Origin: Haplodiscus bocki
Taxonomy: Eukaryota
Assembly (NCBI GenBank): GCA_965655095.1
Contig: OZ296650.1
Location: 124,868,001-124,932,000, forward strand
Length of the DNA: 64,000 nt
Direction of reading: 5' to 3'
Made by a program: the position numbers and the translations under genes. Below, one piece after another: positions 3,001 to 58,740 of the stretch (position 1 is the first letter of the stretch; each line of letters begins with the position of its first letter). The notes below the pieces were generated by a model that worked only from the letters and a program-made list of their open reading frames with translations, was not told the DNA's origin and did not search any database.

Positions 3001-5401
3001 GCAAATTTATGGCAAGTGAAAAAATGCAATTTCAGGAGAAGTGTGCAAACGAAGTTTTTCAGCAATATTTCATCGTGGTTATCCCATACTGAATAAGCAC
3101 CTTCTACGTGAAAAACAAAACTTTTTTTGCCCACTGTGTATGTTCAAGGGTAGATCTTTGTTCCTGCGTTCGGTGAAGTTGGCACTTTTGGCCAGGCGAA
3201 ACTCACAGTCGGCCTTCAACAATTTCAACTATTCTCTCCGTTTTCGACCGAAGGTTCAGGATCTCCTTGAAGCCATTAAGTTTGTGGTCGCCCAAGAGTG
3301 CTGCAATCAAAATTGAGCGATTTTGATGGGTCATATTTTCAAAACATGATGCGAATTCATCAATGAGCTGACTTTCGACAACGCCTACAGCATTTGCTCC
3401 ATACAAAGTTTTGAGCAATACTTCCTCGAATGAAAAACTTTTATTTTTGAATTTCACTGGAAATCGTTAATCTATGTTTTTTGCAGTCAGCATTGCATAC
3501 TTTCGCTTCCACATTGTGCAGGTTTCAATCAAGGTCCCAATTGAGAACTTCTGGCTTGTCGCAAACTAGGTTTTTGACAAGTTACGGATATTTTCTTGCA
3601 TAACAATCCTGATAGTCCGAATATCTCAAAAAGTGTGTTTGATGTTGATTCATTTTGATATTCAAACTCATCTTTCTCCGTAAGTACCGACGTGACTTCC
3701 TTCAGCAAGGTCTCAACCGAAAGCTTCAAAAGTGTGCGAGAATCTGCTACCAAAAAATCTTCGTATTGATCCTTGCATCAGGATTCTGATGTTTTCTGAT
3801 GGTCCGAACATTCCAATTGTGCTAATAATTTTGATTGATTTCCATACTCAATCTCATATTTCTCCGTAACCACAGGCTTGTTTTTTATAACGAGGTCTCA
3901 ATCAAACGATTTACACTGTGGTGAAGAATTTAAAAAAGTCATTTCTTTCGTTCCTTGGAAACGAGTTCTGATAGGTTGAAGGTTGCAAAATGAGCTATTC
4001 ATTTTGATTCACCACGAGATTCAAACTGTTTCTCCGTAACTACCAGCTTAATTTCTGTCATCAAGTTTTCATCGGACAGACTTTCGGTTATGGAGGAGTT
4101 TTGAATTGAAATGCTTGGATTTTATATCTGCGTTGGATATATCATATTTCGAAAATGTCAAACAACTGCTATCAGTTTTGACATTTTTTCTATATTCCAA
4201 CTCATAGTTCTCCTTAACCAGTGACTTGATTTCTTCCTAGACGATCTTAATTTATTTTTTTGGTGTTGAACTTTTTCATTCGAAAGTATTGACTTTTGTC
4301 TTTTCTGTGGAATCCCGATGGACCAGAAATGCCAGAGAGTCCTGTTTGTCTCAATGCTTCGATTTTCAAACTCAAATATCTTGAGCTCTACTTGTTCCAT
4401 TTTTCCATCAAGGTGTCAATCGATCGCTTTTTACTTGAGGCTGACTAGTCGTTTCTGAAAATCATCGAATTGGTCCGTTACATCATTTTTAGAGTCCGTG
4501 ATTGACGAGAAGTGGCAAAAGTGCTTTTAGTTTCGAGATGTCTCGATATTCCAACTCTTCCTTCTTAAAAACTACAGATTTGAATTCTTCTACCAAAGTC
4601 TGAATTGATGTTGGTATGGTTTTGAATGTTTCTCAGTTGAAACAGTCTCTGATTTTGTCCCTTAGATTGGAATATTGATAGGCGGAAGATGCGAAAAAAA
4701 GTCCATTAGTATTCTTATTTTGTCGATATTCAAACTCATAGTTCTCCAAAGCTATCGGCTTGAATTCTTGGACAATGTCTCCGACGAGATGTTTTTTGTC
4801 GTTTTTGTGTTATTTGTAAAAGTGATTTGTTGTAAGTTCGATCAATTTTTTATCCGCCACCTTGACGGAAATGTCGCCGTATGACTGCGCCTCTTGTTTG
4901 CCTCATCACAGTTGAGGTGCATAAACAAATTACTTTCATTGAATGGTTCTTCTGTTGCATGACCGAAATAAAGAGATCTAAAATCTACTATAGAACAAGG
5001 TGGCCAGCTACCACTGGCATATTTTTCACCCTACAACTTGCCTAGACATTATAAAGATGCTTTTTAAAAGATTGAAAGTGTTTTTTCTGATAAATACTCT
5101 GCATCGGGAAGTTTTCTATTTTTATTTTTCTGATTTAAATTTAAAAAATTTCTGATTTGTTTGAGAAAAAAGCTCAATTTAGGTGGAAAAAAAAATTTTG
5201 AGATATAATGTCATTATATAGAAATCTGCAACAAGTTAGCAAGCTTTAGCGATTTTGATATTAAATCATTTTTTTCCTACATACCCCAACTTTCCTAAAA
5301 ACCCAAATTCCGTACGTATTTGAAAACCGTAGTCTTTCAGTCGCAATCTACGGCAAATTTGCTATAATTTGGTGGTATGAAATTTTCAAAGTCACAATGG
5401 C
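1..5401 (-). repeat. Inverted copy (left palindrome arm) of array sequence 6984-12383; runs off window start
   Basis: Position 1 CAAAGACATTCTGG is the reverse complement of sequence ending at 12383. TTCAAAGTCACAATGGC ending 5401 is the reverse complement of GCCATTGTGACTTTGAA starting 6984. ORF-track peptides are mirrored on opposite strands (3203..3457- vs 8927..9181+; 4158..4400- vs 7984..8226+). Confidence 0.95.
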
Positions 5402-6889
5402 ATTCCCTTGGAAAACTGAGGAACAGGCCAATTCGGATGCATACCAGAAATTCTACGTTGAGAGTGCTTCGCAATGCTCATAAGATGCTCCCATGCCGGA
5501 ATTTCATCATTCAGATTAACACTTTCAGAAGACGATCCAACTCTAAATTTAGAAATGCAAGTCCATTTAGGAAGCAGAAAACTGCAGCAGTGAGCCTCTG
5601 TCACTCAGAGGTGTCATAAAAAATGCGCAAAAATCGATTGAGACTCACTGGATGAACAGCTTTGATATTATGTGGGAAATTAGAACTTATCATCAACAAT
5701 GTTTCCGGGTGTTTTGTCAACAAAGAAGCAGCTTCAAGATCGATTTTAAACCGAAAGAAAATGGAACAGGTCAAGCATTAACTCAGACATTTCATCCATG
5801 GGGTTGGCTGATGAATATGCAATGAATATCAATCGAGAAGATACACTCGAGGAAAATAGATTTGGAAAAAAACCAAAAAATTTCGGAATTTAGGTTACAA
5901 GTAAAGAAATTTCTTGCAAGAGGACACAATTTTTTCCACGAAAAAAAAACGTGTCACTTAGAAAATCCTTTACGAAACTGATGCCGGTAACTGAGCAGTG
6001 GATAGTATTGATAGATGTAGCAAAGGTGAATTTCCTACCAAAAATAGATTCTCTCGGGTAATTCAGCCAAAAAAACACCTGAGGCCGATTTTCGAAACTT
6101 GGCGCTTCTTATGAAAATGTGCATGCTAAAAGGAACAAATTGACGCGAGAACATAAAGATGAAAAGTAGAGGGCAGAAACGTGCCCAGGAACAATTGCGA
6201 AATAAATTCGAGGTGTAAACTATACGACAAAAAAACGCGAGTTGACCGTAATAAGCTGGCGTTTGCCATGTAATTGTCTCCACTTTTGAACGAACGGTGG
6301 TCTAAAAACTCCGGCCGTGTAAAGGGTAGGACGGAAGGCTTGTTAGGCATAGATAAGGGTTAGAGACTAAGCAAGTCAATTTTTTTTGAGAAAGCGTCCC
6401 ATCTTTGCGTTATTTCTTGGTAGTATTGTAGAACCTTTTTATGAATGTCTCCTTATACATTTCAAGCATTACGGGCAGCGCCCACTTTGGCGTTCGGGGT
6501 GTGTCTGTTCAAGGAAAGGCCCTACTTTTCTGTATGTGGCTCAATGCCGTATTTACGGTATTTTCGGCTATGCGTAAATAATTCAATGCTACGCTGCTCT
6601 GAGGATACAATTCAGAAGTGTTCGAGAGACTTCAGACGGTAACAAATCGGGAGCCGTCTCATACGTGGTTGCCACCATTCACGGGGACCCTTTGCTGCTC
6701 ACTTTATTCATTTTTACTCGTTTGTTCGTCTGCTTAACACATAAATGGATGCTCTCCTGAAAACCTAGTTCACTGTTTCCCAGCTATGTCACAAATCTGA
6801 GATTATTCGAGCAGCCAAAAGAAATGAAACAGCCTGTGGCGAAATCTTAGCTAATTGGAACGACATTATATTTAAAGTGTAAAAGAAAT

Positions 6890-7390
6890 AAAAGTTTCCG
6901 CCCATATTTAAATATGGAAGGAAAAATCATCCACTCCACGCGAACGTTTTTTTACGTTTACTTGCCAATTGCACAAGATTTGGGCCATTGTGACTTTGAA
7001 ATTTTCATACCACCAAATTATAGCAAATTTTCCGTAGATTGCGACTGAAATACTACGGTTTTCAAATACGTACGGAATTTGGGTTTTTAGGAAAGTTGGG
7101 GTTTGTAGGAAAAAAAATGATTTAATATCAAAATCGCTAAAGCTTGCTAATTTGTTGCAGATTTCTATATAATGACATTATTTCTCAAAAAAGTTTTTTT
7201 CCACCTAAATTGAGCTTTTTTCTCAAACAGATCAGAAAATTTTTAAATTTAAATCAGAAAAATAAAAATAGAAAACTTCCCGAAGCAGAGTATTTATCAG
7301 AAAAAGCACTTTCAATCTTTTAAAAAGCATCTTTATAAGGTCTAGGCAAGTTGTAGGGTGAAAAATATGCCAGTGGTAGCTGTCCACCTT
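6890..7390 (-). mobile_element. ~0.5-kb dispersed non-autonomous repeat, family unassigned; one per array unit (~17800-18290, ~28700-29200, ~38990-39480), truncated copy at ~5010-5401
   Basis: Colinear similarity with 60995-61478: AAAGATGC..GAAAG, AGGTGGAAA, TTTAGCGATT, AAAACCCAAATT, CAGTCGCA(A/T)TCTACGGC(A/G)AATTTGCTA, TTCCATA..TTAAATA..GGCG. Confidence 0.6.
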
Positions 7391-39519: not shown

Positions 39520-41830
39520 TCATGCAACACAAGAACCATTCAATGAATTTAATTTGTTTATGCACCTCAACTGTGATGAGGCAAACAAGAGGCGCAGTCG
39601 TACGGCGACATTTCCGTCAAGGTGGCGAATAAAAAATTGATCGAACTTACAACAAATCACTTTTACAAATAACACAAAAACGACAAGAAACATCTCGTCG
39701 GAGACATTGTCCAAGAATTCAAGCCGATAGCTTTGGAGAATTATGAGTTTGAATATCGACAAAATAAGAATGCTAATTGACTTTTTTTCGCATCTTCAGC
39801 CTATCAATATTCCAATCTAAGGGACAAAATCAGAGACTGTTTCATCTGAGAAACATTCAAAACCATACCAACATCAATTCAGACTTTGGTAGAAGAATTC
39901 AAATCTGTAGTTTTTAAGAAGGAAGACTAGGAATATCGAGACATCTCGAAACTAAAAGCACTTTTGCCACTTCTCGTCAATCACGGACTCTAAAAATGAT
40001 GTAACGGACCAATTCGATGATTTTCAGAAACGACTAGTCAGCCTCAAGTAAAAAGCGATCGATTGACACCTTGATGGAAAAATGGAACAAGTAGAGCTCA
40101 AGATATATGAGTTTGAAAATCGAAGCATTGAGACGAACAGGACTCTCTGGCATTTCTGGTCCATCGGGATTCCACAGAAAAGACAAAAATCAATACTTTC
40201 GAATGAAGAAGTTCAACACCAAAAAAATAAATTAAGATCGTCAAGGAAGAAAACAAGTCACTGGTAAAGGAGAACTATGAGTTGGAATATAGAAAAAATG
40301 TCAAAACTGATAGCAGTTGTTTGACATTTTCGAACTATGATATATCCAACACAGAAATAAAATCCAAGCATTTCAATTCAAAACTCCTCCATAACCGAAA
40401 GTCTGTCCGATGAAAACTTGATGACAGAAATTAAGCTGGTAGTTAAGGAGAAACAGTTTGAATCTCGTGGTGAATCGAAATGAATAGCTCATTTTGCAAC
40501 CTTCAACCTATCAGAACTCGTTTCCAAGGAACGAAAAAATGACTTCTTTTCAAATTCTTCACCACAGTGTAAATCGTTTGATTGAGACCTCGTTATAAAA
40601 AACGAACCTGTGGTTACGGAGAAATATGAGATTGAGTATGGAAATCAATCAAAATTATTAGCACAATTGGAATGTTCGGACCATCAGAAAACATCAGAAT
40701 CCTGATGCAAGGATCAATACGAAGATTTTTTGGTAGCAGATTCTCTCACACTTTTGAAGCTTTCGGTTGAGACCTTGCTGAAGGAAGTCACGTCGGTACT
40801 TACGGAGAAAGATGAGTTTGAATATCAAGATGAATCAACATCAAACACACTTTTTGAGATATTCGGACTATCAGGATTGTTATGGAAGAAAAAATCCGTA
40901 ACTTGTCAAAAACCTAGTTTGCGACAAGCCAGAAGTTCTCAATTGGGACCTTGATTGAAGAACTCAAGCCTCCATTTACGGATAAAAATGAGCTTGAAGA
41001 GCGAGATAAATAAACAGTGAGTGCATTTTTTGGAGTTCTAGGTTTGTCAGGTTTTTGATTCAAGGATCAAAACTAATGATTCTCTCAATGAAGGGTCCTC
41101 TACAAGTGTCAAAGTTTCCATCGAGATCGTCAAACCTGTCGTTACGGAGAACTATGACTTTGAATACAGAGATGAATCAAAATTAAACGCATTTTTTGGA
41201 GCTTCCGGACCATCAGGATTCTGACAAAAGGATCAAAATCATAGTTTATTCAAAGGAATCCTTTTTTACATTTTTAGGGTAATCTATTGACACCTTGTTA
41301 GAAACGAAACCTGTAGTTACGGAGAAACATGAGGTCGAGTATCGAGATAAAACGATATTGAAAGCACTTCATGGAACTTTCGGACTCTTCTGATTCTGAC
41401 GCAAAGATCGAAACCAATTAATTCTGAATCGAATCCTACACCACAAAAGTAATGCTTTCCAAAGGGACTTTGATCGAAGAAATCAAACCTAAAGTTTCGG
41501 AGAAAGTTGAAAATTGAGAAAATCTATATTATTAGCTTTTCTGGAAATTTCAGACGATCGAGAATATGAAGCAAATATCAAAACATGTGGTTTTTAAAAC
41601 AAATCCTCCTCTACAAGTGTAAAGTTTTCGCTTCAGACCCTGATGGAAGAAGTCGAGCCGGTAGTTGATGAGAAAAGTGATTTTAAATATCGACAAGAAT
41701 CAAAACACTTCACAGAAGTCTAGCACTAACAGGATTGTGACAATAGACACAAAACAACGGAGTCAAAGAAGTACTCTTGTAAAAGTGGAACGTTTCCGAT
41801 TCAGACCTGAATGAAGGAAGTGAGACTTTT
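39520..41830 (+). repeat. ~177-bp degenerate satellite; last array copy running on into single-copy monomers
   Basis: The same monomer motif continues beyond the array end at ~40977, 41141, 41314, 41494 and 41662 (GTTACGGAGAACTATGACTTTGAATAC, GTAGTTACGGAGAAACATGAGGTCGAGTATCGA). Confidence 0.8.
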
Positions 41831-43425: not shown

Positions 43426-44217
43426 TAGAGCGACCGTTTTAACTTTATTCTGCTCCATGGCTAAAACTAACAGGGCGTCCTTCGCGTAATCCATAAACAA
43501 CAGCTCGAGACTTGAATAGTGAGTCAATTACCCTTAATAGTTTTTGATGAAACTAAACAAAACTTCATCGTTACCTTACCAGAAAAACAATGTCTACTGA
43601 TAAAATTCAAATCATATTGTGCTAACCTTATACAGTTTACACTCACATTACTTAAACACAAAACTTTAACATTTTATAATTCGTTAGCAAAGAGTTCTTT
43701 GCCTTCACAAAATTACGTTCAAGCAGTTATAAAAATATATAACGTTCTAATCTTTCAAACATTGCACATTTCATACAAACCTTGCAAAACTACCTTTACG
43801 TTAGTTCACAATGATACCCTTGACTTGTGTGCTTGATTACTTGACCTTCGCCCCGATTATTCACTATTTATAACCTATTTAGAACGATAGAATAGACCCG
43901 AAATTGATCAAAACATAACAAGCCAAGCAGTCTAGAAGCGAGTTGCAGTAATATTCAACAATTTTAACCAGACTTTCCTGTTCTGCAGTAACCAGAACTT
44001 CTCCGCAAGTTGAAAATAATGTAAATGTTTTTTTTTATAACGAAACAGCAAACCTTGTTAATTTATATCTTCATTTATTGAAGTTTTTGCCAGAGCAATA
44101 GCAAAAAAAAGAAAAGCACAATCAAAACAACCTTTTGAAACAAGCGTCCACGCATCCGAGAGAAAAATAGAAAAAACCTCTTGTAATGGGTTTAACAGCA
44201 AAATCACGGTAGTTAAA
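43426..44217 (+). repeat. 5' LTR
   Basis: Aligns end to end with 53637-54445 (AGCGACCGTT...CAGGGCGTCC.TCGCGTAATCCATAAACAA through TTTAACAGCAAAATCACGGT.GTTAAA). About 85% identity counted by hand over the first ~105 bp. Confidence 0.9.
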
Positions 44218-44218
44218 T

Positions 44219-44236
44219 TGGTGACAGGAGTGGGAT
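44219..44236 (+). promoter_or_regulatory. Primer-binding site complementary to tRNA-Leu 3' end
   Basis: TGGTGACAGGAGTGGGAT lies 1 nt after the LTR. It matches 17/18 to the reverse complement of the typical animal tRNA-Leu(CAG) 3' end ATCCCACTCCTGACACCA (recalled). Confidence 0.85.
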
Positions 44237-45496
44237 TGCTCTAGTTGCTTAGAGTCAAACCATTATTTCAGCGTGACTTAGTTTGAACTCTTCCAAACTG
44301 CCTTAAGACTTTCTTCTCGGGACTTGTCCCGTGCTAATTCTAGTTGTGCTCCCTGGCGAAAAACCACCGTAGACGGCAGATAGGGCCCATAGGCTAAGAA
44401 AATTCACTTAGTACGGCCAAATAGGCAAATTTTTGAAATTTTGTTAAATCTTCACCACAAAACCGATAGTCTAGTTCAATGAAAACCAAATGTACATTTG
44501 CAAAAACGTTGAAACGTCGATTAATTAGAAGCATCTCGTCACTTTCGAATTCTCAGTCCATCAGCCGACTTTTTAACCCCATGAAAAATTGATTTCTTCG
44601 CAACTAGCTTTACCTTAACCCTGCCCCATGTTCCATAACCGTACTAACCAACTACCCCGTTACATTTTGAACCGTACCTCACCATGCATTCCGCCTCCCC
44701 GGTACTCAAAAACTGAACGGTTCGGTCCACGCTTGGACTCAAGTTTCGTATATTTAACGTTGATTTTCGCGCTCCCTGTAATCGTATTGATTTTCTTAGA
44801 TAGTTTTGTGCCAAGTTCTCATAATGACGCATCTCGAAAAATTTCGGAGTTGTTCCACGGAAAGACAGCCTAGCGGTGTGATGGTTTTTGGAAAAATAAG
44901 CAAACTAGCAGCTGATTTTCATTTTTCATTGCGAGCCACTATCTGACGACCACCACAAAACCTAACAATTCCTCGTTTTCTCACAAACTGGAGGTTTTGA
45001 GTTAACTCACCAATTCGACAAACCCCGAAACCCGCTCGTAATTTTACGTCTACCCAATCAGTAGGTTGATTGGCCCATTCACTCTAGTTGTGTCATCGAT
45101 ACCAAACGCGCCAAAAAGGTTATTGATTATCCCCTGTTATCACTGTCAAATAGCTCAATTTCGTATTCATGTAAAACATCAAGTCCAGAACACCCCATTG
45201 CTCACCCAACAACTCAAAACTCTTGTTGCAGCAAAAACTAGAAGACTTCCACTACAACCATCATCCAAGTGAAATAGACTCTTCCCAATCACACTTCTTC
45301 AGCTCTAAGTAGTACTTCTACAGCCGGACTCTCCACCACGTTTTTCACCAGATTGCGTGACATTTGGTTAGAAAACCTCGAAAAACATGAACACTTCTCG
45401 TACCATTCGGTACCTCAGACGTTTCAATAACCACTCTTCTTAACCTCTTGTCATCTCCAACTGCATCAGACCCTTTGAGTAGAGGTCGCAGAACGC

Positions 45497-45802
45497 TTGA
45501 TGCCACGTTATCAAGAGGACGACCGTCATTCCGTTAATTTTCTTCGGAACTCGCCAGGTAACGGCATTTTGTACATGAACAAAATTGTTTGGAACGGATA
45601 CGGAGATCCTATTAAACTTTCCGGGTACAACTCTCAACCCGTTCCGCCAAGTGACATTTGTCTTGAAGTTTTTCCCCTCAGGCCGAATTGGACGAGTCTT
45701 TATTGGCGTCTGACTGAGTACCAGCAGTTAAAAATCGGAAACCCCGTCAACGAGCACGTTTTTGGAGAATTGGTTGACTATCTTGCCATGAGCACCGATT
45801 AA
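45497..45802 (+). pseudogene. Possible extra ORF upstream of gag, unknown product; probably begins further upstream through stops
   Basis: 101-aa globular-looking frame (..GILYMNKIVWNGYGDPIKLSGY..WTSLYWRLTEY..) ending 59 nt before the gag start. No family recognised. Confidence 0.35.
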
Positions 45803-45860: not shown

Positions 45861-47189
45861 ATGAAGCTCAGTCCGAAAAGGAACTGGGCGCAGCTGAGCA
45901 AGCAAGCACCACAGAGGCAGCCCCACAAGGGCCTGGAAATTCCACCAAAACCACTTCAACACCTGGAGCGGCCTTCCACAGCCGGATTTTCCATCATCTA
46001 TCCGACAGTAACTTCATTTCTTCCGTTCCCTGGAATGCCTGGAGGACCTCCCAGTGCAAGAGTTACCCTACCGTCATGTCTCATGCCCGAATCGTTCAAC
46101 GCTTCCGGCGACTTCGAAAATTACCTCCAACAATTCAATACAGCAGCCGTGCTGGCCGCCTGGTTCTCCACCGAGACATGATCACCGACCACAATACTTC
46201 GCACTTCGGTTGAGAGAGAATGAGTTGCATTTCTATACATCCTTGTGCCCGGATCACCAAGCCGACTATGATCTACTCGTGGACGCATTTCGACAGAATT
46301 ACACCAAACGTTTTGGAAGCGAGTCTGAAATCTCCCAAGCAGCAACCTGAACAGGAAATCGCCAACTTTGCGATTTACGCACTTTAGCACGTCACGCTTA
46401 TCGCGCCAGCCCACACTTGATTGACCAGATAGTACTCATGAGCTTCGTCCAAGGATTAAAGAGTCCCACTCTTCACTGCGAATTGAGGAAAGCACAAGCC
46501 AGGACAGTGGAAGAAGCACTAACGCTAGCAGTAGAACTCGACTCGTTCGTCGCACTGGAAAGGACAAATTATCCAGACTCCGCCAGCCAAAAAAACTTCA
46601 GTGTGAACCAAATTGGTAGTGCAACCTGAGTCCGACACAGTCGAGGTACTGGTACGGTCCTCAAGGAACGAGGTGGATATTATAAAGCGTTCCACTCATC
46701 ACAGAAACGATTCACTTGACAAACATAGAAACCGGACCGATTCCCTGGACAAAAACAAAGAACGTAATAACACAAGGGAGCACACGCCAACCGTTTCGAG
46801 TCAACGGACCGAAATCAGCAAAAATCCAGGTATTCAGATGAAAAAAGGAAGAATTGGGATGACAGGAATTTTCGATCTTTCCGTTTCGAGCTTCATAGCT
46901 GAAATCAAAACGGCAGACGGAACAATTACTCGCGTTACGGATTCAGAGACCGGATAAGAACAGACAAAGCCTCCCTTATACGAAAACACCAAACCAGCAA
47001 CCCAATAATCACAGAAACGATCATTTACCGAACACACAACGCAACAATTCAGATAGCCGAAGTCAATCATGTCATCATTCTGGACGATCAAATCATTTTT
47101 CAAACAAATGCAAAGCATGCTTCAATTGCAAACGCATCGGACACTTCCACCACCATTGCAAGGCACCGAGAGCCAATCCGTTAACCTAA
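45861..47189 (+). pseudogene. gag: gag (frameshifted)
   Basis: Capsid-like segments PESFNASGDFENYLQQF, LRLRENELHFY..YDLLVDAFRQNY and FVQGLKSPTLHCELRK..TVEEALTLA. CCHC knuckle CFNCKRIGHFHHHC at 47118-47159, preceded by a degenerate second knuckle. Stop at 47187-47189. Confidence 0.85.
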
Positions 47190-50100
47190 AACAGTCTACG
47201 CCAGCGGGTAGACATGAATACAGAGAATGGCCCAGAACAAAGTACCATTTTAAATTCAGTGGCCGACCCTCGTAGTGTTCTTGTTGCCATTCAAGTGTGT
47301 GACAGATCAACTGAAGCAGCCTGACTGCGGGGAAAAAGTTTCTTGTGTGAGCCCAGTCATTTTTGAGGATCTGCGGAAGACAAACGAGAATCAACTGCCG
47401 GAGTGCAACATGAACTTCAAGGCTGCCAACGGCCTACCTATCGGCGTCAAACGGATTAACAGGGTCCCCCTTATGATTGGAAACAAACATTATGAACATG
47501 AATTTCATGTTTTAGAGAACACTGAAACTGACTACGTACTGGGAATAGATTTCCTGGAAAGTAATCAATGTGATCCTCCGTTTTCTCGGATGGAATTCAG
47601 ACTCGATCCAAGCCATTCCATTCGGATGAATCACAAAACTTTCGACTATCACACCAATACGGTTTTTCGAGTCGTAGCGACCGAAACAACCCTGGTACCA
47701 CCAGGCCACACCAAAATTCTTTCAGCACATATCCCATATTGGAAGAAACCACCCGTCACCCTAAACGCTGTCTGCGAGCCTCAAAGCAAACTTTCCCCCG
47801 GAAACGAATTCTCAGTTACAAATATAAAGTTCAACTACTCCAATGAAGTTATCCCAATTGCTCTAGAGAACAGAGCTGAGTCTGATGTGACAATTTATAA
47901 AAACACAGCGCTTGGCTTCTCCAAAGTCATTCCTGAAGATTGTTGAATAGTGTTAACCCCAAGCCGAAATTCGTTCCCGTCAAGCAACTTCGCAAGTACG
48001 ACCAGCGCCACGTTCCCCAATCAATTGATTCCAGCGAGCCACCAGACTTCCAAAACAAATTTAAAGACCTCGTTCAGGATTCAGGAGTAAATTCTCAAAA
48101 AGCGAATAGGACCTCAGCAAGTGCGACGTGATAACACATATAATCGAAGTTTATCCAGGTGCCTAGCCAGTGAAGCTTCCGAAGCGACGAATGCCCTTGC
48201 ACTGCAAGCAGGATTTGCACGATAAAGTGGACGATTTTTTGGAGAAAGCCTTGATAGCTTATAGTCATAGCCCCTACAACGCCCCCGCCATGTTGGTGCC
48301 GAAGAAAAATGGGAAACCACGCCTCGTCATAGATTACCGCCAGCTCAACAAACAATCACGTCAAGCTGGCTGATCCCATCTATAGAAGAAATTTTCCACA
48401 CATTAGATGGAAGCTCTTTATTTTCTACAAACGACATGTCCGCAGGTTTTTACTATGTCCCAATGGACACAACCAATCAGAACTTCACCGTTTTCAGTAT
48501 TTCTTTCGGTTCCTTCAAATGGCTTCGAATGCCAATGGGTCTGACGGAAAGTCTAAAAACTTTCCGAAATTTGATGGAGCAGAATTTGGCCGGTCTCACA
48601 TGGAAGTCATGTGCACCATTCTTGGACTATTCCAGCATCTTTTCGAGGACCCCAAAGGAACACGTTTCACAAATTCCGCAAAGTTTCCCAACGCCTTCAT
48701 GATGCTAACCTGAAAATTTTAGTTGCAAAATGTTCCTTCTTTTAAACAAAAATGCCGTTCCTGGGCCACATTAACAGTAAAGACGGCCTCCAAATTGACC
48801 CCGGAAAAGTTGATGTCGTAAGGAAGTCTTCTACAGAAATCAAACAGAAGTAAAACCCTTCCTGGGACTAGCATCCTATTACAGGCGTTATGTCTCCAAT
48901 TTCGCCGCCATTGCCAGCCCTCTACACAAGGCGAGTGCAACTTCTTCCATGTTCTTTGGACTGAAGAAGCCTAGGACGGTTTTGAGACCCTGAAATCCCG
49001 CTTAACGTCAAAAACTATTGCCTTTCCGTGTCTCCAACAGCCTTCATTCTGTATACTGATGCAAGTCAGTCTGCTATAGGAACTGTTTTCCCTCAAGTAC
49101 AGGATGGTATGGAAAACCAATTGTTACACTTCCAAAGCACTTTTGAAGTCGCAAACAAAATATCCAGCAACTCGTCGCAAACTCCTTGCCATCGTAACTT
49201 TTACAAGACACTTCCGTCACAACTTGCTGGGACGGAAGTTTACGATAGTAACTGACCATAGGGCACTACAATGGCTACACAATTTCAAAGATCCGGACGG
49301 AATGACAGCCCGTTAGTTAGAAAAAATAGCGTTTTTCGATTACACGGTTCGCCAGAAGCCCGGAACGTCAATCGGTCATGCCGATGGCCTCTCAAGAGTG
49401 CCCTCCCTTGAAGGGAATGTTGTTGCACACAAGAGCAGCCAAATCGATTTCCCACATCAAGATGAAAGCAATCAGTGGGGGCATTCCACTATGACACAAA
49501 AGGATGACGATGACCATGCATCCACCAGTTCCGAGGAATGGCGTAACCGAGAAATTCCGCGATATTCCCTAATTTCTCCAGACATTCTGAATGCGGCAAT
49601 TCGCTACCAGGATATCATTGCCGACCTTTTCCATTCAACAGACTCCCTCACACATTGTCTCCGCCGACTCCAAAAGGTCAGCCGGCATAGCCCGCAAAAT
49701 CGAGATGAATTTCTCGACGATCTATACCAACAATTTTGATCATAGATTGAATCCACTGTGGCCGCAATGGATACCCAGTCAGAAAAGATACATTTACAAT
49801 TTACTTACCAAACAAAAGCTCCACAAAAAGCCAACTCAAGGAATGTTGCACGCTTCCCCCGAAACGTATGAGGACGCATGAGGAGAACGGAGTTCATCAA
49901 ATTAGCATGCCCTGCATCGGTTCCGGTCTCGACAAACTCGAGTAGAACGTGCTTCGACAACTTTTTCAAGACATCACCAGTTGCCATCGTTGTGTACCTT
50001 AAAGAGGAACTTGGGTCAGCATCATCAGCACAAGCAACCTAGGCTGTTAATCCATTAGTCAAACACAACAAGCTAATGAAAGCTTGAGACATGTCAGAGA

Positions 50101-50311
50101 ATGGGTCAGAAGATGCACATCCCGACACAATGAGTTAGAAGGCCTACCCCGTCAATGATGTAAAAGTATAACCAATTAGCCAGCCTCTACCTCCATGAAG
50201 ACGTGCTTCGCCGAAAATTTGAACCCCCTGACGGCAGCGAACCTTACCTCCAAAAGATTATCCCTCCCGCCCCGGTCTCCGAAATTATCTTATCACTCCA
50301 TAACTCCGCCA
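47190..50311 (+). pseudogene. pol: pol: protease - RT - RNase H - macrodomain - integrase N-terminus (disrupted; integrase core deleted)
   Basis: PR: DCG at 47323, FKAANG, VLGIDFL. RT: SPYNAPAMLVPKKNGKPRLVIDYRQLNK, DMSAGF, RMPMGL, and FLDY in place of YLDD at 48619. RH: FILYTDAS, KLLAIV, FTIVTDHRALQWL, HADGLSR. IN lead-in: QKIIPP..EIILSLHNS. Confidence 0.92.
49599..50002 (+). pseudogene. TARG1/OARD1 (Poa1p/DarG-class) macrodomain within pol
   Basis: Stitched over frameshifts: IIADLFHSTDSLTHC/VSADSKRSAGIARK..RYIYNLLTKQKLHKKPT../GVHQISMPCIGSGLDKLE*NV. This parallels TARG1 GDLF..SLAHCISED..GAGIA..RYIYYLITK..KPT..GVTDLSMPRIGCGLDRLQW. Confidence 0.88.
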
Positions 50312-51228
50312 CGGAATGTGTTCTTCTGCCCGATGCACCACAAGCATTTTATTCACCCGACGGAATGTACGATAAAGTATCAAGAGATCTCAATATCCAG
50401 ATGAACGAAATGTGGCGCCGCAGGCTTCTATATTTCCACTTTATCGGGCGAGAATTGCCTTGTCCGCCCAAGCTCTAAAAGCAAAATTTCTTTCAACCAA
50501 AAGACCTAGAATTGGTTCCTGACAAGGAATTCTGTAAAATTAACCCAGAGCCATCGCTGGCTACGACCGAACTTACCCTGACCCTTGATCAAATTTTCAA
50601 ACAAGTCTCCAACGCCACACACAAATTTCACAGTTACTCTATTGCAGAGGCACGGCATTCTGTTCTGAGCACCGTCCATCTTGAATTAGCAGAACTCCCA
50701 AACGTCAAACGTATGTCTCCAGAGACACTTGCCGATCTAACTCGTCCTATTGCCAAAGATTACTAGTCCATTTCAGCAGCCACATCGGCAACACTTTCCT
50801 CATATCACCCCATTTGTACGGCCGTCCTTTTTTCTATGGTTTCTATCACGTTGTCTCTACCAACCTTCTGTATTAATTTCACACTTTAACGTCGAAAATG
50901 GAGACGTCTGTTTGCACATCCACAGCGCTTCTTCCGTGGGATATTCGGTCGTATTCTTCAGACGAAAGATTTTCAGCCTACTGCTTCTCATGAATCTTTT
51001 CTGTATTTGTCGGTAACCGAGTTTAAAGCTTTGCAAGCTCTTGCCAAGGAAGATTCTCACCGCCCTACTTTAAACACTCCACTCAATCCTCATGAAACCA
51101 TTAACATTATTACTAAACCTACTAACAACCTTCCAGCTCATTCATTCGTTTCTACCCATGCCCCTAACTTTCCACAGCGTTTTTATTCAATAATCAGCGC
51201 CCCCACATACAGTGCACCATCAACCTAA
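50312..51228 (+). pseudogene. C-terminal remnant of an env-like membrane protein
   Basis: Lies downstream of IN. Cys-containing segment (CLVRPS..DLELVPDKEFC), hydrophobic stretch AVLFSMVSITLSLPTFCINFTL (50821-50886), basic RRKWRR, then a P/T/S-rich tail. Contains internal stops. Confidence 0.5.
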
Positions 51229-51529: not shown

Positions 51530-52576
51530 TTTGTTCTTTAGGTCCTACTTCAACTTTTCCCAACAACCCCAACAGTCCTTGTCCGTCTTGACCAGCTCGA
51601 TCCGGATCCATTCTGATGCAGTCAACGACCACGTATTCTTGGTAGAAGATCTACAGTACAGGGTCACAAAGATCTTCCCTGAGGATGGCAGCAGTCGGCT
51701 CCAAAAATCAATTGCCGGATAGCCCCTTCAAGTTGCAACCCCTGTCACCTCCGAGGCTTCGGTTACGGCCGATCTGCCTACGTCAAACTGCCTTTGCCCC
51801 AAACAGACACCTCCTCAAATTCTCTGACATTTCTGACACCGCTGTTCAGGTACACGTGCCCCAAAGGGATGCGATGGATGAGTGGATTTCGCTGATGACG
51901 ATTATTCCTCCGTTGACAATCTAGAAAAGGCTGTTTCCGAGGCTCGCAAGCAGTCGCAGATACAGCTTCATACGACACAGCATACAGAAGCTTCTCTTCA
52001 ATCACAGGTTGCGTCCCTGACTGAATTGAAGCACCTCCGGTCCTGTCTCCAGGACCTTAATCACACACACAGCGAACTTATGAGCCACTCAATGGAACAA
52101 CTCGAAACGATCGGCTAGTTGCGCAGTCAACTGGCTTCCAAATCATCGAACTCCGAGGCCATATTACCCCTTCTACGAGTTACTTTTGACCCTGCCCATC
52201 GATTTCGAAGATGATCTCATACCGGATGACACCTCATATCACTTCCTCTGCTGTGCGCCAAATGCTGACGCCGCGACACTCCGGATTTGCTAACTTGTGG
52301 CTCAAATGTCTTCACCCGGACAAATCTTCGACGCCAGATGACCCTCTGGTTCAAGCCGCTAGCCGCCTGGTTACTTTCATCACATGGATCAAGCGGACCG
52401 TCACCACACCAGCCCTCCGTCAAGTCTACGATCATTGCGGCCTGGAAGGTCTGCGCCGTCTGCGAAACACTCTTCGCCGTTCGCGATGCACTCCCAGCTC
52501 ACCAGATAGGTTTCCCGCACAGCAGGTGTGCCCTGAGTATCCTCAATTGGAGCTGCCCTTCAGCTACGGCACATAG
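51530..52576 (+). pseudogene. Accessory ORF: coiled coil followed by a DnaJ-like J-domain (disrupted)
   Basis: Heptad-like LEKAVSEARKQSQIQL..LQSQVASLTELKHL (51882..52118). Frame 52211..52576 has LKCLHPDK (HPD at 52313) and PALRQVYDHCGLEGLR. Confidence 0.7.
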
Positions 52577-52752
52577 GCGCCCTCCCGCTTCCCTTGCCTT
52601 CGTACCGCCGGCTTCGCTTGTGTGGGATCTGTTCTCTTAATGCCCCCCTTTTCTGCTGAGTCTTGTGTGCCCTTCGCTGGGTTTGTCTTGTGCTGTGTCT
52701 TCAATACTGAGACAGCGTTGTTTTCAGCTCCTGGAGTAGTTGCGTCTCGGAC

Positions 52753-53410
52753 GATGCATATCTTTGGTGCCAGTTCATTAGCTGCTGCTTTAAAAACTCT
52801 CTTTGATGGTGTCTTCAAACGGCGACGTTCTTTAACTGCCATTCCTGGACTACATTTAGTACAACGCTCTGCCCGATTCCCCTAGAAAACAGTCCAATTT
52901 CAACTTAAGAAACTTCTGCGTCTCAACAAAAACAAATTAAAGTTCAAAATCTTTCTATGGCATGACACCATTAACAAATCAATTACGCCGCACTCAAACT
53001 TCTACAAACCTTTAAGTCCCCAAGATCTCGTCGAACAAATCCGTGCTCTTCCTTCTCCCGTCTCTACAATCGTATACTGTCAGTGGATTATCTCTCCTCC
53101 ATTTTTCGACCACCTACGACAATCCTTCTTGACTGTTCATGCCGTCAGACACCTCTTATTCGACCGTAAACTCAAGAATAACGCCTTACTTCGAAAACAC
53201 AGCGACCTCCATTTAGACAACCCAATAGAAATCAGCATGTTCTTCCTGATATCCAAACATATTAGTGACCTCCGCCAACTAACCAAGAAATCCAGATTCA
53301 GCAACAAGCGACGCCGGTCACTCTTCCGACAACAACAACAACTACCGGAGCAACCACCACCTCAACAACATCTTCATCACCAACGACACCAAGAAATACA
53401 TACGCGTTAA
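52753..53410 (+). pseudogene. Accessory ORF, possibly SGNH/GDSL-hydrolase-like, with basic and Q/P/H-rich tail
   Basis: MHIFGASSL...TAIPGL, then a frameshift near 52882, then IFLWHDTINKSITPHSNFYKPLSPQDLVEQIRALPSPVSTIVYC. The frame stays open to 53410 and includes NKRRR and QQQQ. Confidence 0.4.
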
Positions 53411-53636: not shown

Positions 53637-54445
53637 TATAGCGACCGTTACTACTTTATTCTGCTACTTGGCTAAAATCAACAGGGCGTCCCTCGCGTAA
53701 TCCATAAACAATAGCTCAAGACTTAACTTGTGAATCGAGTACCTTCGATGGTACTTGATAATACTTGACAAAACTTTAGCAAAACTCCATAGTTACCTTA
53801 TCGGCAAAACAATGTATAATCATAATATTCAAAACAAATCGTACTAACGTAATACAAAGTACACTCACTATATTTAAACACAAAACTTTAACATTTTATA
53901 TTTCGTTTGTAAAGAGTTCTTTGCCTATACAAAATTACGTTCAAGCAGTTCTAAAAATATATTACGTTCTCATCTTTCAAACATTGAACAATTCATACAA
54001 GCCTTCCAGAACTACCTTTAAATATTGCATTATTTGACGTTGATACCTTGATTTGTGTGCTTGATTAGGAGACCTTCGCCCCTATAATTCACTATTTTTA
54101 ACTTATTTATAACGATAGAAAAGACCGGGAATTGACCAAAACATAACAAGCCAAGCAGTCTAGAAACCAGTTGCAGTAATATCCAACAAAGTTAACCACA
54201 TTTCTTTTCTGCAGTAGCCAGAACTTTTACGCAAGTTGAAAATAATGTAAGTGTTTGTTTCTTCATAACGAAATAGCAAACCTTGTTAATTTATATCTTT
54301 AATTATTGAAGTTTTTGCCAGAGAAATTGCAAAAAAAAGAAAAGCACAATCAAAAAAACCTTTTGAAACAACCGTCCGCGCATCGGATAGAAAAATAGAA
54401 AAAAACTCTAGTCATAGTTTTAACAGCAAAATCACGGTTGTTAAA
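53637..54445 (+). repeat. 3' LTR
   Basis: Direct repeat of 43426-44217; similarity ends after CACGGTTGTTAAA. Confidence 0.9.
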
Positions 54446-56206: not shown

Positions 56207-56625
56207 CTAGGTGTGTTTGTTTTGAGCCTTCTGAGACTGAGGCTGGTTGTAGATGACAATAGCGGCTATAACAAAAAAAGTTCCGCACATGAATTGCGCA
56301 TTAATTTGGAAGTGGAACAAAAAACAGGATCCAATGCAAGCACCAATGATAGCAGCTGCACATGCAAAGCCTTTCAAAATATTGTCAGCATATTTGACAA
56401 CCATAGACACAAGAAGACCCCCGGCTCCCTGCAACACGACCACGAAATAAACGCAAGGCGTGAAACCATGGAAGTAGCCACGGGTCACAATGTCATCTCG
56501 GTCCTTGATCAAACTGACCAAAAGTCCCATTAAGATTCCAAAAGCTGCCAGTTGAATATTAGCCAACCAAATTTCTTTTCTCTTTCCAAACTTCAGCATC
56601 CGTTCAAACCAAACGCCAGCGAAAC
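56207..56625 (-). CDS. Last coding exon of an SLC35A-family nucleotide-sugar transporter (UDP-Gal/UDP-GlcNAc, SLC35A2/A3-like)
   Basis: Acceptor TGTTTCTGTAG|GT TTC GCT GGC. Translation GFAGVWFERMLK..IWLANIQL..RGYFHGFT..QGAGGLLVSMVVKYADNILKGFA carries the family signature motifs. The frame is intact to TAG at 56207-56209. Confidence 0.93.
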
Positions 56626-57643
56626 CTACAGAAACATCAATTCTTAATGATTAACTTCCCAGACAAGGAAATCAATAATTTAATGTTTTCTTTCAAGTTA
56701 TAACTAAAAAATGAACATAAGCACCAACAGCGGTAGGCATTAAACGATAAGAACTTCGAAGTGAAAAAAATGCACTCTGTCACACCGTTTCGCCTTGAAA
56801 AAACTAATGAAATGAGCGAATTCAGCAAAGTCTCCCGTTGCGTCGAACAGCCGAAGCGCGTCGAACAGAAAAGTGTCGCAGATTTCGGAGCGTTTTAAAA
56901 TTTGAAAATTTTCGGAAGTCCAAATAATGTCATACCATGAAATAGCAAATATGTGGCTTAATTGCACAGCTTTGTTGTCGTTATGAGTGAGAATTTTCAC
57001 ATCAAAACTTACTTAATGTAATAAAAACAAAGCCAGTGAAGATCAGGCAAAAAAATGTAGCGTCCTGGATTCTGAATACGTACTGTGTCAACTGTACTTG
57101 CCTTCTTTAGTGTAGTGGTTAACAGCAAAAGACGGGAGTCCGGCGACGACGTTCCCAAATAGGATCAAATTTTTTGATCCGTATTTCGTACCAACTTCTA
57201 CTCTAAAGAAATTTGTTTTAAGACACCAAAAAGCTTAATTTTCTTTCAGTCAGTTTTTAGGTTTTTTATGCACAACTTTTTCAGATTCAAAACTTTCGGG
57301 TATTACCGCATAGTTTAACCTCATTTTCAAAAATATCCAAAAGTTCCGAAAACATGATTTATCTTTCAAAAACGTTTAAAATTACAATATTTGATTATAA
57401 TTATTGAACAAGAAAAATCATGGAAATTACTCTAAGACGAATTGAAACACAATTTCTAGCAACCTTAACCTGGTCTTTCCGGGTCCTAAAATAACAAAAA
57501 CATCTCTCCCGGAACCTCTTTTTTATTTTTCGCCGTATATGAAACATACAAGAAAAATCATTCATTCAGTACAGTGTACAGTGGGGTCAAATTTTCTTTT
57601 TTTTTCAGTGCCAAACTGCCAACTCTTTTTAATCAAAGATAAA

Positions 57644-57737: not shown

Positions 57738-58740
57738 ATTTTCGATACCCGCAATTAGTGAAATACTAAGGGGTTCCCCCACGGCATTTTTCGGCACTGT
57801 GAGACAAAAAATTTTCGACGAAATATTTTGTTACCCCCCCCCCCCTCACCCTTCTTATCCATAAACTTTTTCGCTGCCAGAAATTTTCTGAAACACAGCA
57901 TAGAAGGGGACCTCTACGAAATGTTTCGGTACTGTGAGAAAAAAAAATTTCGACGGAAAATCGTGACATAACCCTCTGAAGTAAAAATTTTTTCGATACC
58001 CGAAATTAATGAAAGACTAAAATGTTCCCCTACGAAATTTTTCGGCACTGTGAGACAAAAAAATCGACGGAAAAATTTGATACTCCCCCCTCCAACCTTC
58101 TTACCCATAAACTTTTTCGCTACCAGAAATTTTCTGAAACACAGCACAAAAGGGTTCCTCTACGAAATGTTTCGGTACTGTGAGACAAAAAATTTTCGAC
58201 AGAAAATCGTGACATAACCCTTTGAAGCATAAATTTTTTCAATACCCGAAATTAATGAAAGACTAAAGAATTCCCCTACGGCATTTCTCGGCACTTTGAG
58301 ACATAAAATTTTTGACGAAAAAATTTGTTACCCCCCCCCCCACCCTTCTTATCCATAAACTTTTTCGCTACCAGAAATTTTCTGAAATACAGCACAGAAG
58401 GGTTCCTCTACGAAATTTTTCGGCACTGTGAGACAAAAAATTTTCGACAGAATATTGTGATACTCCTTTCCTCCTCCTCCCCTCCCCCTCCCCCCCCCCC
58501 CCCCCCCACCTCTTATCCATAAATTTTTTCAATACTAGAAATTTTGTGAAACACAAAAGGGTTCCCCTACGAAGTTTTCCGGTACTGTGAGACAAAATCG
58601 TGATACCCACCCCCTTTGTTATCCCTAGCATTTTTCGGTACCAGAAACTTTCTGAAACACAGAAGGGTTCCTCGACGAAATTTTTCGGCACTGTGAGACA
58701 AAAATTTTTCAACGGAAAATCGTGATACCCTTTTGCATAA
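57738..58740. repeat. Tandem repeat of ~8 monomers (106-159 bp) with A/B alternation and poly-C tracts
   Basis: CGG(C/T)ACT(G/T)TGAGA at ~57792, 57927, 58043, 58173, 58289, 58421, 58580 and 58686. Confidence 0.9.

Follow-up and report, generated by a model that had tools for sequence, protein, structure and literature searches.

A macrodomain that sequence and model comparisons assign to the TARG1/OARD1 type lies within the pol polyprotein of a clade of Ty3/gypsy LTR retrotransposons, between RNase H and integrase, and a relic of it is present in the window (the whole 64-kb stretch of DNA analysed here). The window element is a decayed Ty3/gypsy LTR element of ~11 kb. Its membership follows from the PR-RT-RH-IN order between LTRs and a Ty3-like RT, and the top PDB match of the pol of an intact relative was Ty3 Gag-Pol (E 7e-110). 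The features of the element are as follows:

43426-44217, + strand: 5' LTR, direct repeat of 53637-54445
44219-44230, + strand: candidate primer-binding site, with TGG directly behind the LTR
45861-46629, + strand: gag remnants in several frames, by-eye likeness to the gag ORF of the relative L004
47214-47937, + strand: protease and following spacer, decayed (tblastn against P0010, 64-80% identity; weak Pfam aspartyl protease matches)
48080-48954, + strand: RT and connection region, frame-broken (RVT_1 E 5e-7; tblastn; profile matches)
48957-49400, + strand: RNase H, frame-broken (RT_RNaseH E 2.5e-17; tblastn; profile matches)
49401-49592, + strand: linker 1, with a candidate RT/IN protease site at ~49410-49427 that is degenerate in the window copy (motif in relatives)
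49593-50002, + strand: TARG1/OARD1-type macrodomain in four pieces, with three frame breaks and one stop (PDB and Pfam matches; intact relatives)
49810-49812, + strand: codon of the Lys84 equivalent, in LLTK (alignment to 4j5r)
49931-49933, + strand: codon of the Asp125 equivalent, in GLD (alignment to 4j5r)
50003-50313, + strand: linker 2, pre-integrase segment and first residues of the integrase H2C2 region (tblastn against P0002/P0010)
50314-50950, + strand: C-terminal remnant of a probable env-like membrane protein, predicted from hydropathy (hydrophobic segment at ~50812-50880, then a basic tail)
53637-54445, + strand: 3' LTR, direct repeat of 43426-44217

The two LTRs were 83.9% identical across 812 columns, which indicates an old insertion, and a TGG just 3' of an LTR is what we take to be the primer-binding-site pattern. 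GC content was ~46% in the element interior compared with ~37% in the flanks. The L004 ORF that the gag remnants resemble matches Retrotrans_gag (E 4e-9). Remnants of protease, RT and RNase H stand in pol order, disrupted by many frame changes and stops. Similarity between the window and pol stops at 50313, which corresponds to residue 1046 of P0002/P0010 (tblastn) and the start of the integrase zinc-finger region, and no match to the integrase H2C2 region or core was found anywhere in the 64-kb window. Almost the whole integrase has been lost from the window copy after 50313. In run X4, three contigs carried different sequence before 50313, consistent with a deletion in the window copy that joined the env-like remnant to the integrase stump. 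The env-like remnant itself gave no Pfam match.

Several other stretches in and around the element were noted. L004 has an ORF with a hydrophobic start 3' of pol (6451-6906, +) that matched no Pfam family, and the open frames at 45479-45802 (+, before gag) and 51882-52576 (+, after the env-like remnant) matched no Pfam family above the cut-off. Two successive ORFs with one stop between them lie upstream of the 3' LTR (52577-53410, +) and by eye show an SGNH-hydrolase-like motif order. For the ORF at 52886-53410, assignment as an SGNH hydrolase found no support (no Pfam or Atlas match, model pLDDT 52, nothing in Foldseek at E <0.001). Outside the element, 39715-41715 holds ten diverged direct repeats with a period of ~175 nt, whose frames share a short acidic-aromatic peptide and are perhaps a decayed repeat protein; 56207-56647 (-) carries part of a nucleotide-sugar transporter gene (Pfam Nuc_sug_transp, E 5e-44), which marks the host as a eukaryote, probably an animal; and 57739-58738 is a satellite-like array with spacings alternating between ~116 and ~132 nt. 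The 64-kb window contained no tRNA gene.

The macrodomain motif series, which the earlier note had placed at 49599-50002 in pol orientation, was confirmed there on the + strand, directly after RNase H. Its pieces (~49593-49656, 49657-49863, 49865-49972 with an in-frame stop, and ~49965-50002) are distributed over three frames. The description as full-length is thus correct for coverage but not for coding: the window copy, with three frame breaks and one stop, is a dead relic, unable to make a macrodomain protein. When two pieces were compared separately with the PDB, the matches were weak (E 0.024 and 0.12), with human TARG1 the sole match (5 of 5 at E <=10), and Pfam Macro matched one piece (E 0.011). 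However, the pieces share 65-87% identity with intact natural pol proteins whose own domain matches TARG1 at E 8e-27, and the resemblance in the window is therefore not due to chance. A natural sister copy, P0101, is 79-89% identical to the window pieces and keeps the domain in a single frame up to GLD. Near the break at 49862, about half of the read depth departs from the window sequence (20.3 of 41 in X1; 76.5 of 148.5 in X4), so the break seems real in reads, although X1 and X4 may be the window's own source.

The intact relatives show the arrangement that the window copy has lost. In P0002 (1302 aa, 137 cluster members) and P0008 (1593 aa), protease, RT, RNase H, macrodomain, H2C2 and integrase core are encoded in one ORF, and the TARG1 match at E 8e-27 is that of residues 804-939 of P0002. 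The placement between RNase H and integrase accordingly holds in intact relatives and, because the integrase is missing, is not fully shown by the window copy. The single ORF also implies that the macrodomain is translated with RT and integrase, with which the earlier note had expected it to be packaged. A macrodomain match, its frame with pol and its presence in intact relatives were all found. Searches with the macro region returned 22 matches among long proteins, namely 21 ENA retroelement pols and one RNA-virus replicase, and 135 among shorter proteins, with an ENA source for 118 of the 120 listed. Every one of the 26 cluster members that extend from RNase H to H2C2 contained the macrodomain; these were drawn from 68 members fetched without the macro region as query, although the sample is not independent since the cluster representatives carry the domain.

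The domain had been labelled TARG1/DarG-class, of which the TARG1 half was upheld. TARG1 was matched at E 1e-26, whereas DarG was matched only at E 2e-4 (member P0033). An AlphaFold model of P0085 (pLDDT 75) retrieved TARG1 at Foldseek ranks 1-8 (E 2e-11), with DarG next (E 5e-8). Human TARG1/OARD1/C6orf130 (PDB 4J5Q, 4J5R, 4J5S, 2L8R; ALC1-like class) was the best match in both sequence and fold, and the element domain shares its Lys84, Asp125, Gly43 and Gly123. It differs from TARG1, a stand-alone gene, in lying within a retrotransposon polyprotein, in its middle segment, and in having a mostly non-basic residue at the Arg126 position. The DarG macrodomain (PDB 5M31, 5M3E, 5M3I) has class, fold and catalytic lysine in common with the element domain, but identity was 15-18% (Foldseek), and DarG, as described in passages of published work, has the catalytic lysine without the TARG1 aspartate that the element domain keeps. 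DarG was rejected as a membership label on the grounds of this aspartate and the far weaker match. In addition, the macrodomain is encoded in frame inside pol, unlike the two-gene DarT/DarG operon; no DarT partner occurs among the identified domains of the element, and none of the 20 window ORFs scanned matched DarT. Taken together, the matches and the model indicate that the element domain is a TARG1/OARD1-type macrodomain.

Conservation of the domain was assessed across the macrodomain-bearing pols. Mean identity among 11 representatives was 61% in the macrodomain, 79% in RNase H, 62% in H2C2, and 23% and 16% in the two linkers; 40 of 136 macrodomain columns were invariant in 11 families, compared with none in the linkers. 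Tree length over eight full-length pols was 3.65 for the macrodomain, 1.15 for RT, 1.43 for the integrase core and 3.01 for the C-terminal part of integrase. By these alignments the macrodomain is constrained, yet among the faster pol domains. Its rate relative to the other folded domains, together with its absence from L004, would fit a neutral passenger in pol, but such a passenger would hardly hold its frame in all 26 spanning members or keep invariant columns that the linkers lack. On these two grounds we rejected this explanation as extremely improbable.

Equivalents of Lys84, Asp125, Gly43 and Gly123 were each kept in 19 of 20 representatives, which are related and not independent. The numbering uses one constant offset on the 4j5r alignments, which fits K50, K84, R86, D125 and R126. 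The claim that the TARG1 lysine (LLTK) and aspartate (GLD) are retained was borne out, as both are present in the window and each is kept in 19 of the 20 representatives. In passages of the literature, Gly43 and Gly123 are described as the ADP-ribose pocket glycines of TARG1, and exchange of Gly123 for glutamate is reported there to abolish ADP-ribose binding (PMC5928194). From these conserved residues, the domain is predicted to be probably enzymatic. Two families depart from this pattern yet retain the domain, which speaks against a strict requirement for catalysis: the two catalytic positions of P0050 hold arginine and glutamate, and aspartate occupies the Gly123 position of P0040. Changes at the catalytic residues, or an acidic side chain in the binding loop, were seen in the families P0050 and P0123 and in P0040 and P0085.

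A basic residue was found at the Lys50 position in 18 of 20 representatives, at Arg86 in 18 and at Arg126 in five; all three are RNA-docking positions in TARG1 according to passages of bioRxiv 10.64898/2026.03.31.715305. The two conserved basic surface positions, the binding of RNA by TARG1 with no sequence preference (as stated in passages of published work) and the persistence of the domain in two families despite pocket changes would suit a basic RNA-binding or structural module that aids packaging or integrase solubility independently of ADP-ribose. We consider such a function very unlikely, since few positions are conserved better than the pocket glycines and the catalytic pair.

The nearest relative outside the macrodomain-bearing pols is L004, whose RT is 51-74% identical to that of the macro-bearing family (66-74% for 13 of 14). 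Its RNase H is followed by a short linker and integrase in a long open pol ORF with no macrodomain, which argues that gypsy replication does not need the domain in general. In a quick tree of RT, RNase H and integrase, which included only two macro-less relatives, the 14 macro-bearing pols formed a clade (SH-aLRT 98) whose sister was the macro-less L004 (100). A single gain on the stem of the gypsy clade, between RNase H and integrase, is thus the simplest reading of this tree. Exchange of the macro cassette between families (P0040) found no support (AU p 0.21 and 0.49), so that the macrodomain tree is compatible with the pol tree. The macrodomain trees (139 columns) left 76 of 163 inner branches open and the element clade without a resolved cellular sister, and fish OARD1 proteins fell apart from the element clade. 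When metagenomes were scanned with the pol alignment, 10 loci were found, three of them with RNase H and H2C2 matches and none of these three with a macrodomain. Scans of IMG/VR returned no relative with the pol alignment and, with the macro alignment, three loci, none with a retroelement domain. Stand-alone TARG1-type ORFs were seen on three IMG/VR contigs of 39-110 kb (L001-L003, ~4953-5405).

The linkers bear on how the domain would be released from the polyprotein. A [VIL][NDEQ]x[VI] motif, of a kind found at gypsy protease sites, occurs within 14 residues behind RNase H in 13 of 14 scored rows, compared with 1 of 14 in the rest of linker 1 and 2 of 14 between macrodomain and integrase; the pattern was defined post hoc from the alignment, 6 of the 20 rows were left out of the scoring and the rows are related. 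Since the motif follows RNase H and rarely precedes integrase, the domain probably stays on integrase. The mature product is thus probably Macro-IN, travelling with the integration complex, and not a free macrodomain.

A domain held on integrase recalls the chromovirus integrases (e.g. MAGGY), which likewise carry an accessory cellular domain, as described in passages of 10.1101/2021.11.30.470311. The chromodomain is a methyl-histone reader at the integrase C-terminus, whereas the element macrodomain is a probable ADP-ribose enzyme at the N-terminus. By analogy, the macrodomain could be a reader or tether that directs the integration complex to chromatin sites by binding the poly(ADP-ribose) there. 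Its location on integrase, at either end in different elements, would suit this role, as would passages of published work in which TARG1 reaches damage sites through ADP-ribose binding and the class holds readers besides erasers; the P0050 family, moreover, keeps the domain with altered catalytic residues. A pure reader, however, need not keep the catalytic pair, which 19 of 20 representatives do over a tree length of 3.6 changes per site, and the binding loop of P0040 contains an acidic residue. We therefore regard a reader as unlikely.

Macrodomains of the same class were found in other elements. Profile searching across 1.84 billion representatives yielded 6712 matches at E <=0.001, of which the best 150 were viewed; a Pfam scan covered 61 of these 150 and two earlier matches. 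In P0199, P0252 and P0262 the TARG1-type domain follows integrase. In P0279 (Athalia rosae XP_048515211.1), which has two copies, and in P0166, where it abuts H2C2, it lies between RNase H and integrase, as in the gypsy clade. These pols belong to distant RT lineages (in the three that have an RT, it is 29-43% identical to that of L004), their macrodomains, which adjoin integrase in all five, fall outside the gypsy clade, and their database records are unnamed or 'uncharacterized'. The fragmentary P0280 and P0309 also carry a TARG1-type domain, and by eye the lysine and aspartate are kept in at least one copy of all seven. A single clade of all 19 LTR-borne domains was rejected in an AU test (p 0.033; 56 hand-picked rows of 166, 139 columns), which lends weak support to several independent captures by LTR elements. 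Not every capture adjoins integrase: P0178 has a macrodomain from the gypsy clade, but after protease. In P0178 and P0174, clade macrodomains stand in a differing element layout, which suggests movement of the domain between element lineages. A catfish protein, P0297, combines a LINE-type endonuclease domain with macrodomain pieces and may be a mis-joined gene model.

The class also extends to RNA viruses, including P0054 and P0312. A viral fold search (BFVD) placed virga-/negev-like viruses and Kadipiro virus on top, and TARG1-type macrodomains were seen in virga/negev-like, picorna-like and other RNA viruses. Alphavirus and coronavirus macrodomains, which likewise place a macro fold in a replication polyprotein, are presumably of the MacroD-like class; those of alphaviruses ranked low in the fold search, at 12-14% identity. 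Macrodomains of the alphavirus and coronavirus type have a counter-defence role. The presence of a TARG1-type domain in RNA viruses is what would be expected of a counter-defence module. Since these viruses have no DNA stage, cDNA, one of the targets named in the earlier note, would be one candidate substrate of the element domain, with RNA or protein as likely.

Among cellular proteins, the domain was fused to DNA ligase 3 parts, polynucleotide kinase, NADAR, SLOG, XPG, TatD and HMG domains (fusion proteins P0202, P0208, P0222, P0226, P0227, P0230, P0238, P0277, P0281, P0292 and P0193). The fusions to DNA ligase 3, polynucleotide kinase, XPG and TatD, and the repeated attachment to integrase, raise the possibility that the domain is an active eraser in routine repair, clearing PARP1/2 marks from the gapped integration intermediate or from cDNA ends and thereby allowing host repair to complete the insertion. 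A review passage in which TARG1 strips ADP-ribose from nucleic-acid ends and relocates to DNA damage points the same way. Against a repair function, the class is also found in RNA viruses that never pass through DNA, and the integrases of L004 and L006 look intact without the domain; we give it about one chance in five.

Capture of macrodomains by retroelements is already known. Some fish epsilon-like ERVs have additional macro domain ORFs (Basta et al. 2009, as cited in a passage of PMC4977317); these are likewise macrodomains captured by an LTR retroelement, but the elements are retroviruses and the domains additional ORFs. Basta et al. 2009 may already describe a pol-linked domain. A literature search, whose coverage excluded most subscription papers and Repbase-type reports, found no paper describing a TARG1-type domain within gypsy pol, and the arrangement is absent from main-text passages of PMC11696869, PMC4695847, PMC4402516 and two preprints. 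The present case stands out by its catalytic class, its connection with integrase and its recurrence.

These observations fit the following course of events. The ancestor of the clade would have captured a TARG1-type macrodomain once into pol, between RNase H and integrase, as the tree suggests, and the domain would be translated as part of the pol polyprotein, as the single ORFs of relatives imply. A protease cut just behind RNase H, predicted from the motif, would leave it as an N-terminal extension of integrase. The conserved residues point to TARG1-like chemistry, in which the lysine would attack ADP-ribose and the aspartate would resolve the intermediate. Passages on TARG1 itself describe a lysine adduct resolved by Asp125 and activity on acidic residues and nucleic-acid ends, and also on RNA bases (bioRxiv 10.64898/2026.03.31.715305). 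As the least certain step, the domain may act in counter-defence, erasing host PARP-type ADP-ribose from element RNA, cDNA or integrase. We give an even chance to such an eraser, which would counter host ADP-ribosylation of these targets. A captured eraser domain hints that host cells use ADP-ribose tags against mobile elements; the anti-retroelement ADP-ribosyltransferase proposed in the earlier note is accordingly a prediction and not a finding. More tentatively, and in our view with odds clearly below even, LTR retrotransposons may have captured TARG1-type hydrolases onto integrase repeatedly and independently, in response to a defence in which animal cells ADP-ribosylate the RNA, cDNA or integrase of retroelements; such domains would then parallel, in eukaryotes, the anti-DarT erasers of phages.

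Conflict over ADP-ribosylation is well established for RNA viruses and phages but, to our knowledge, little documented for LTR retrotransposons. For annotation, some 'OARD1-like' database entries may be retrotransposon fragments. The occurrence of a catalytic-looking TARG1 domain, in frame across a large and diverse gypsy clade and adjoining integrase in unrelated elements, makes a direct test possible of what is erased and which host enzyme writes the mark. If the domain is a reader, it would represent a new integration-targeting mechanism. If it is an eraser of host marks, it would reveal a new arm of transposon control, and if it was captured repeatedly in response to host defence, it would provide a handle on an undescribed PARP-based anti-transposon pathway.
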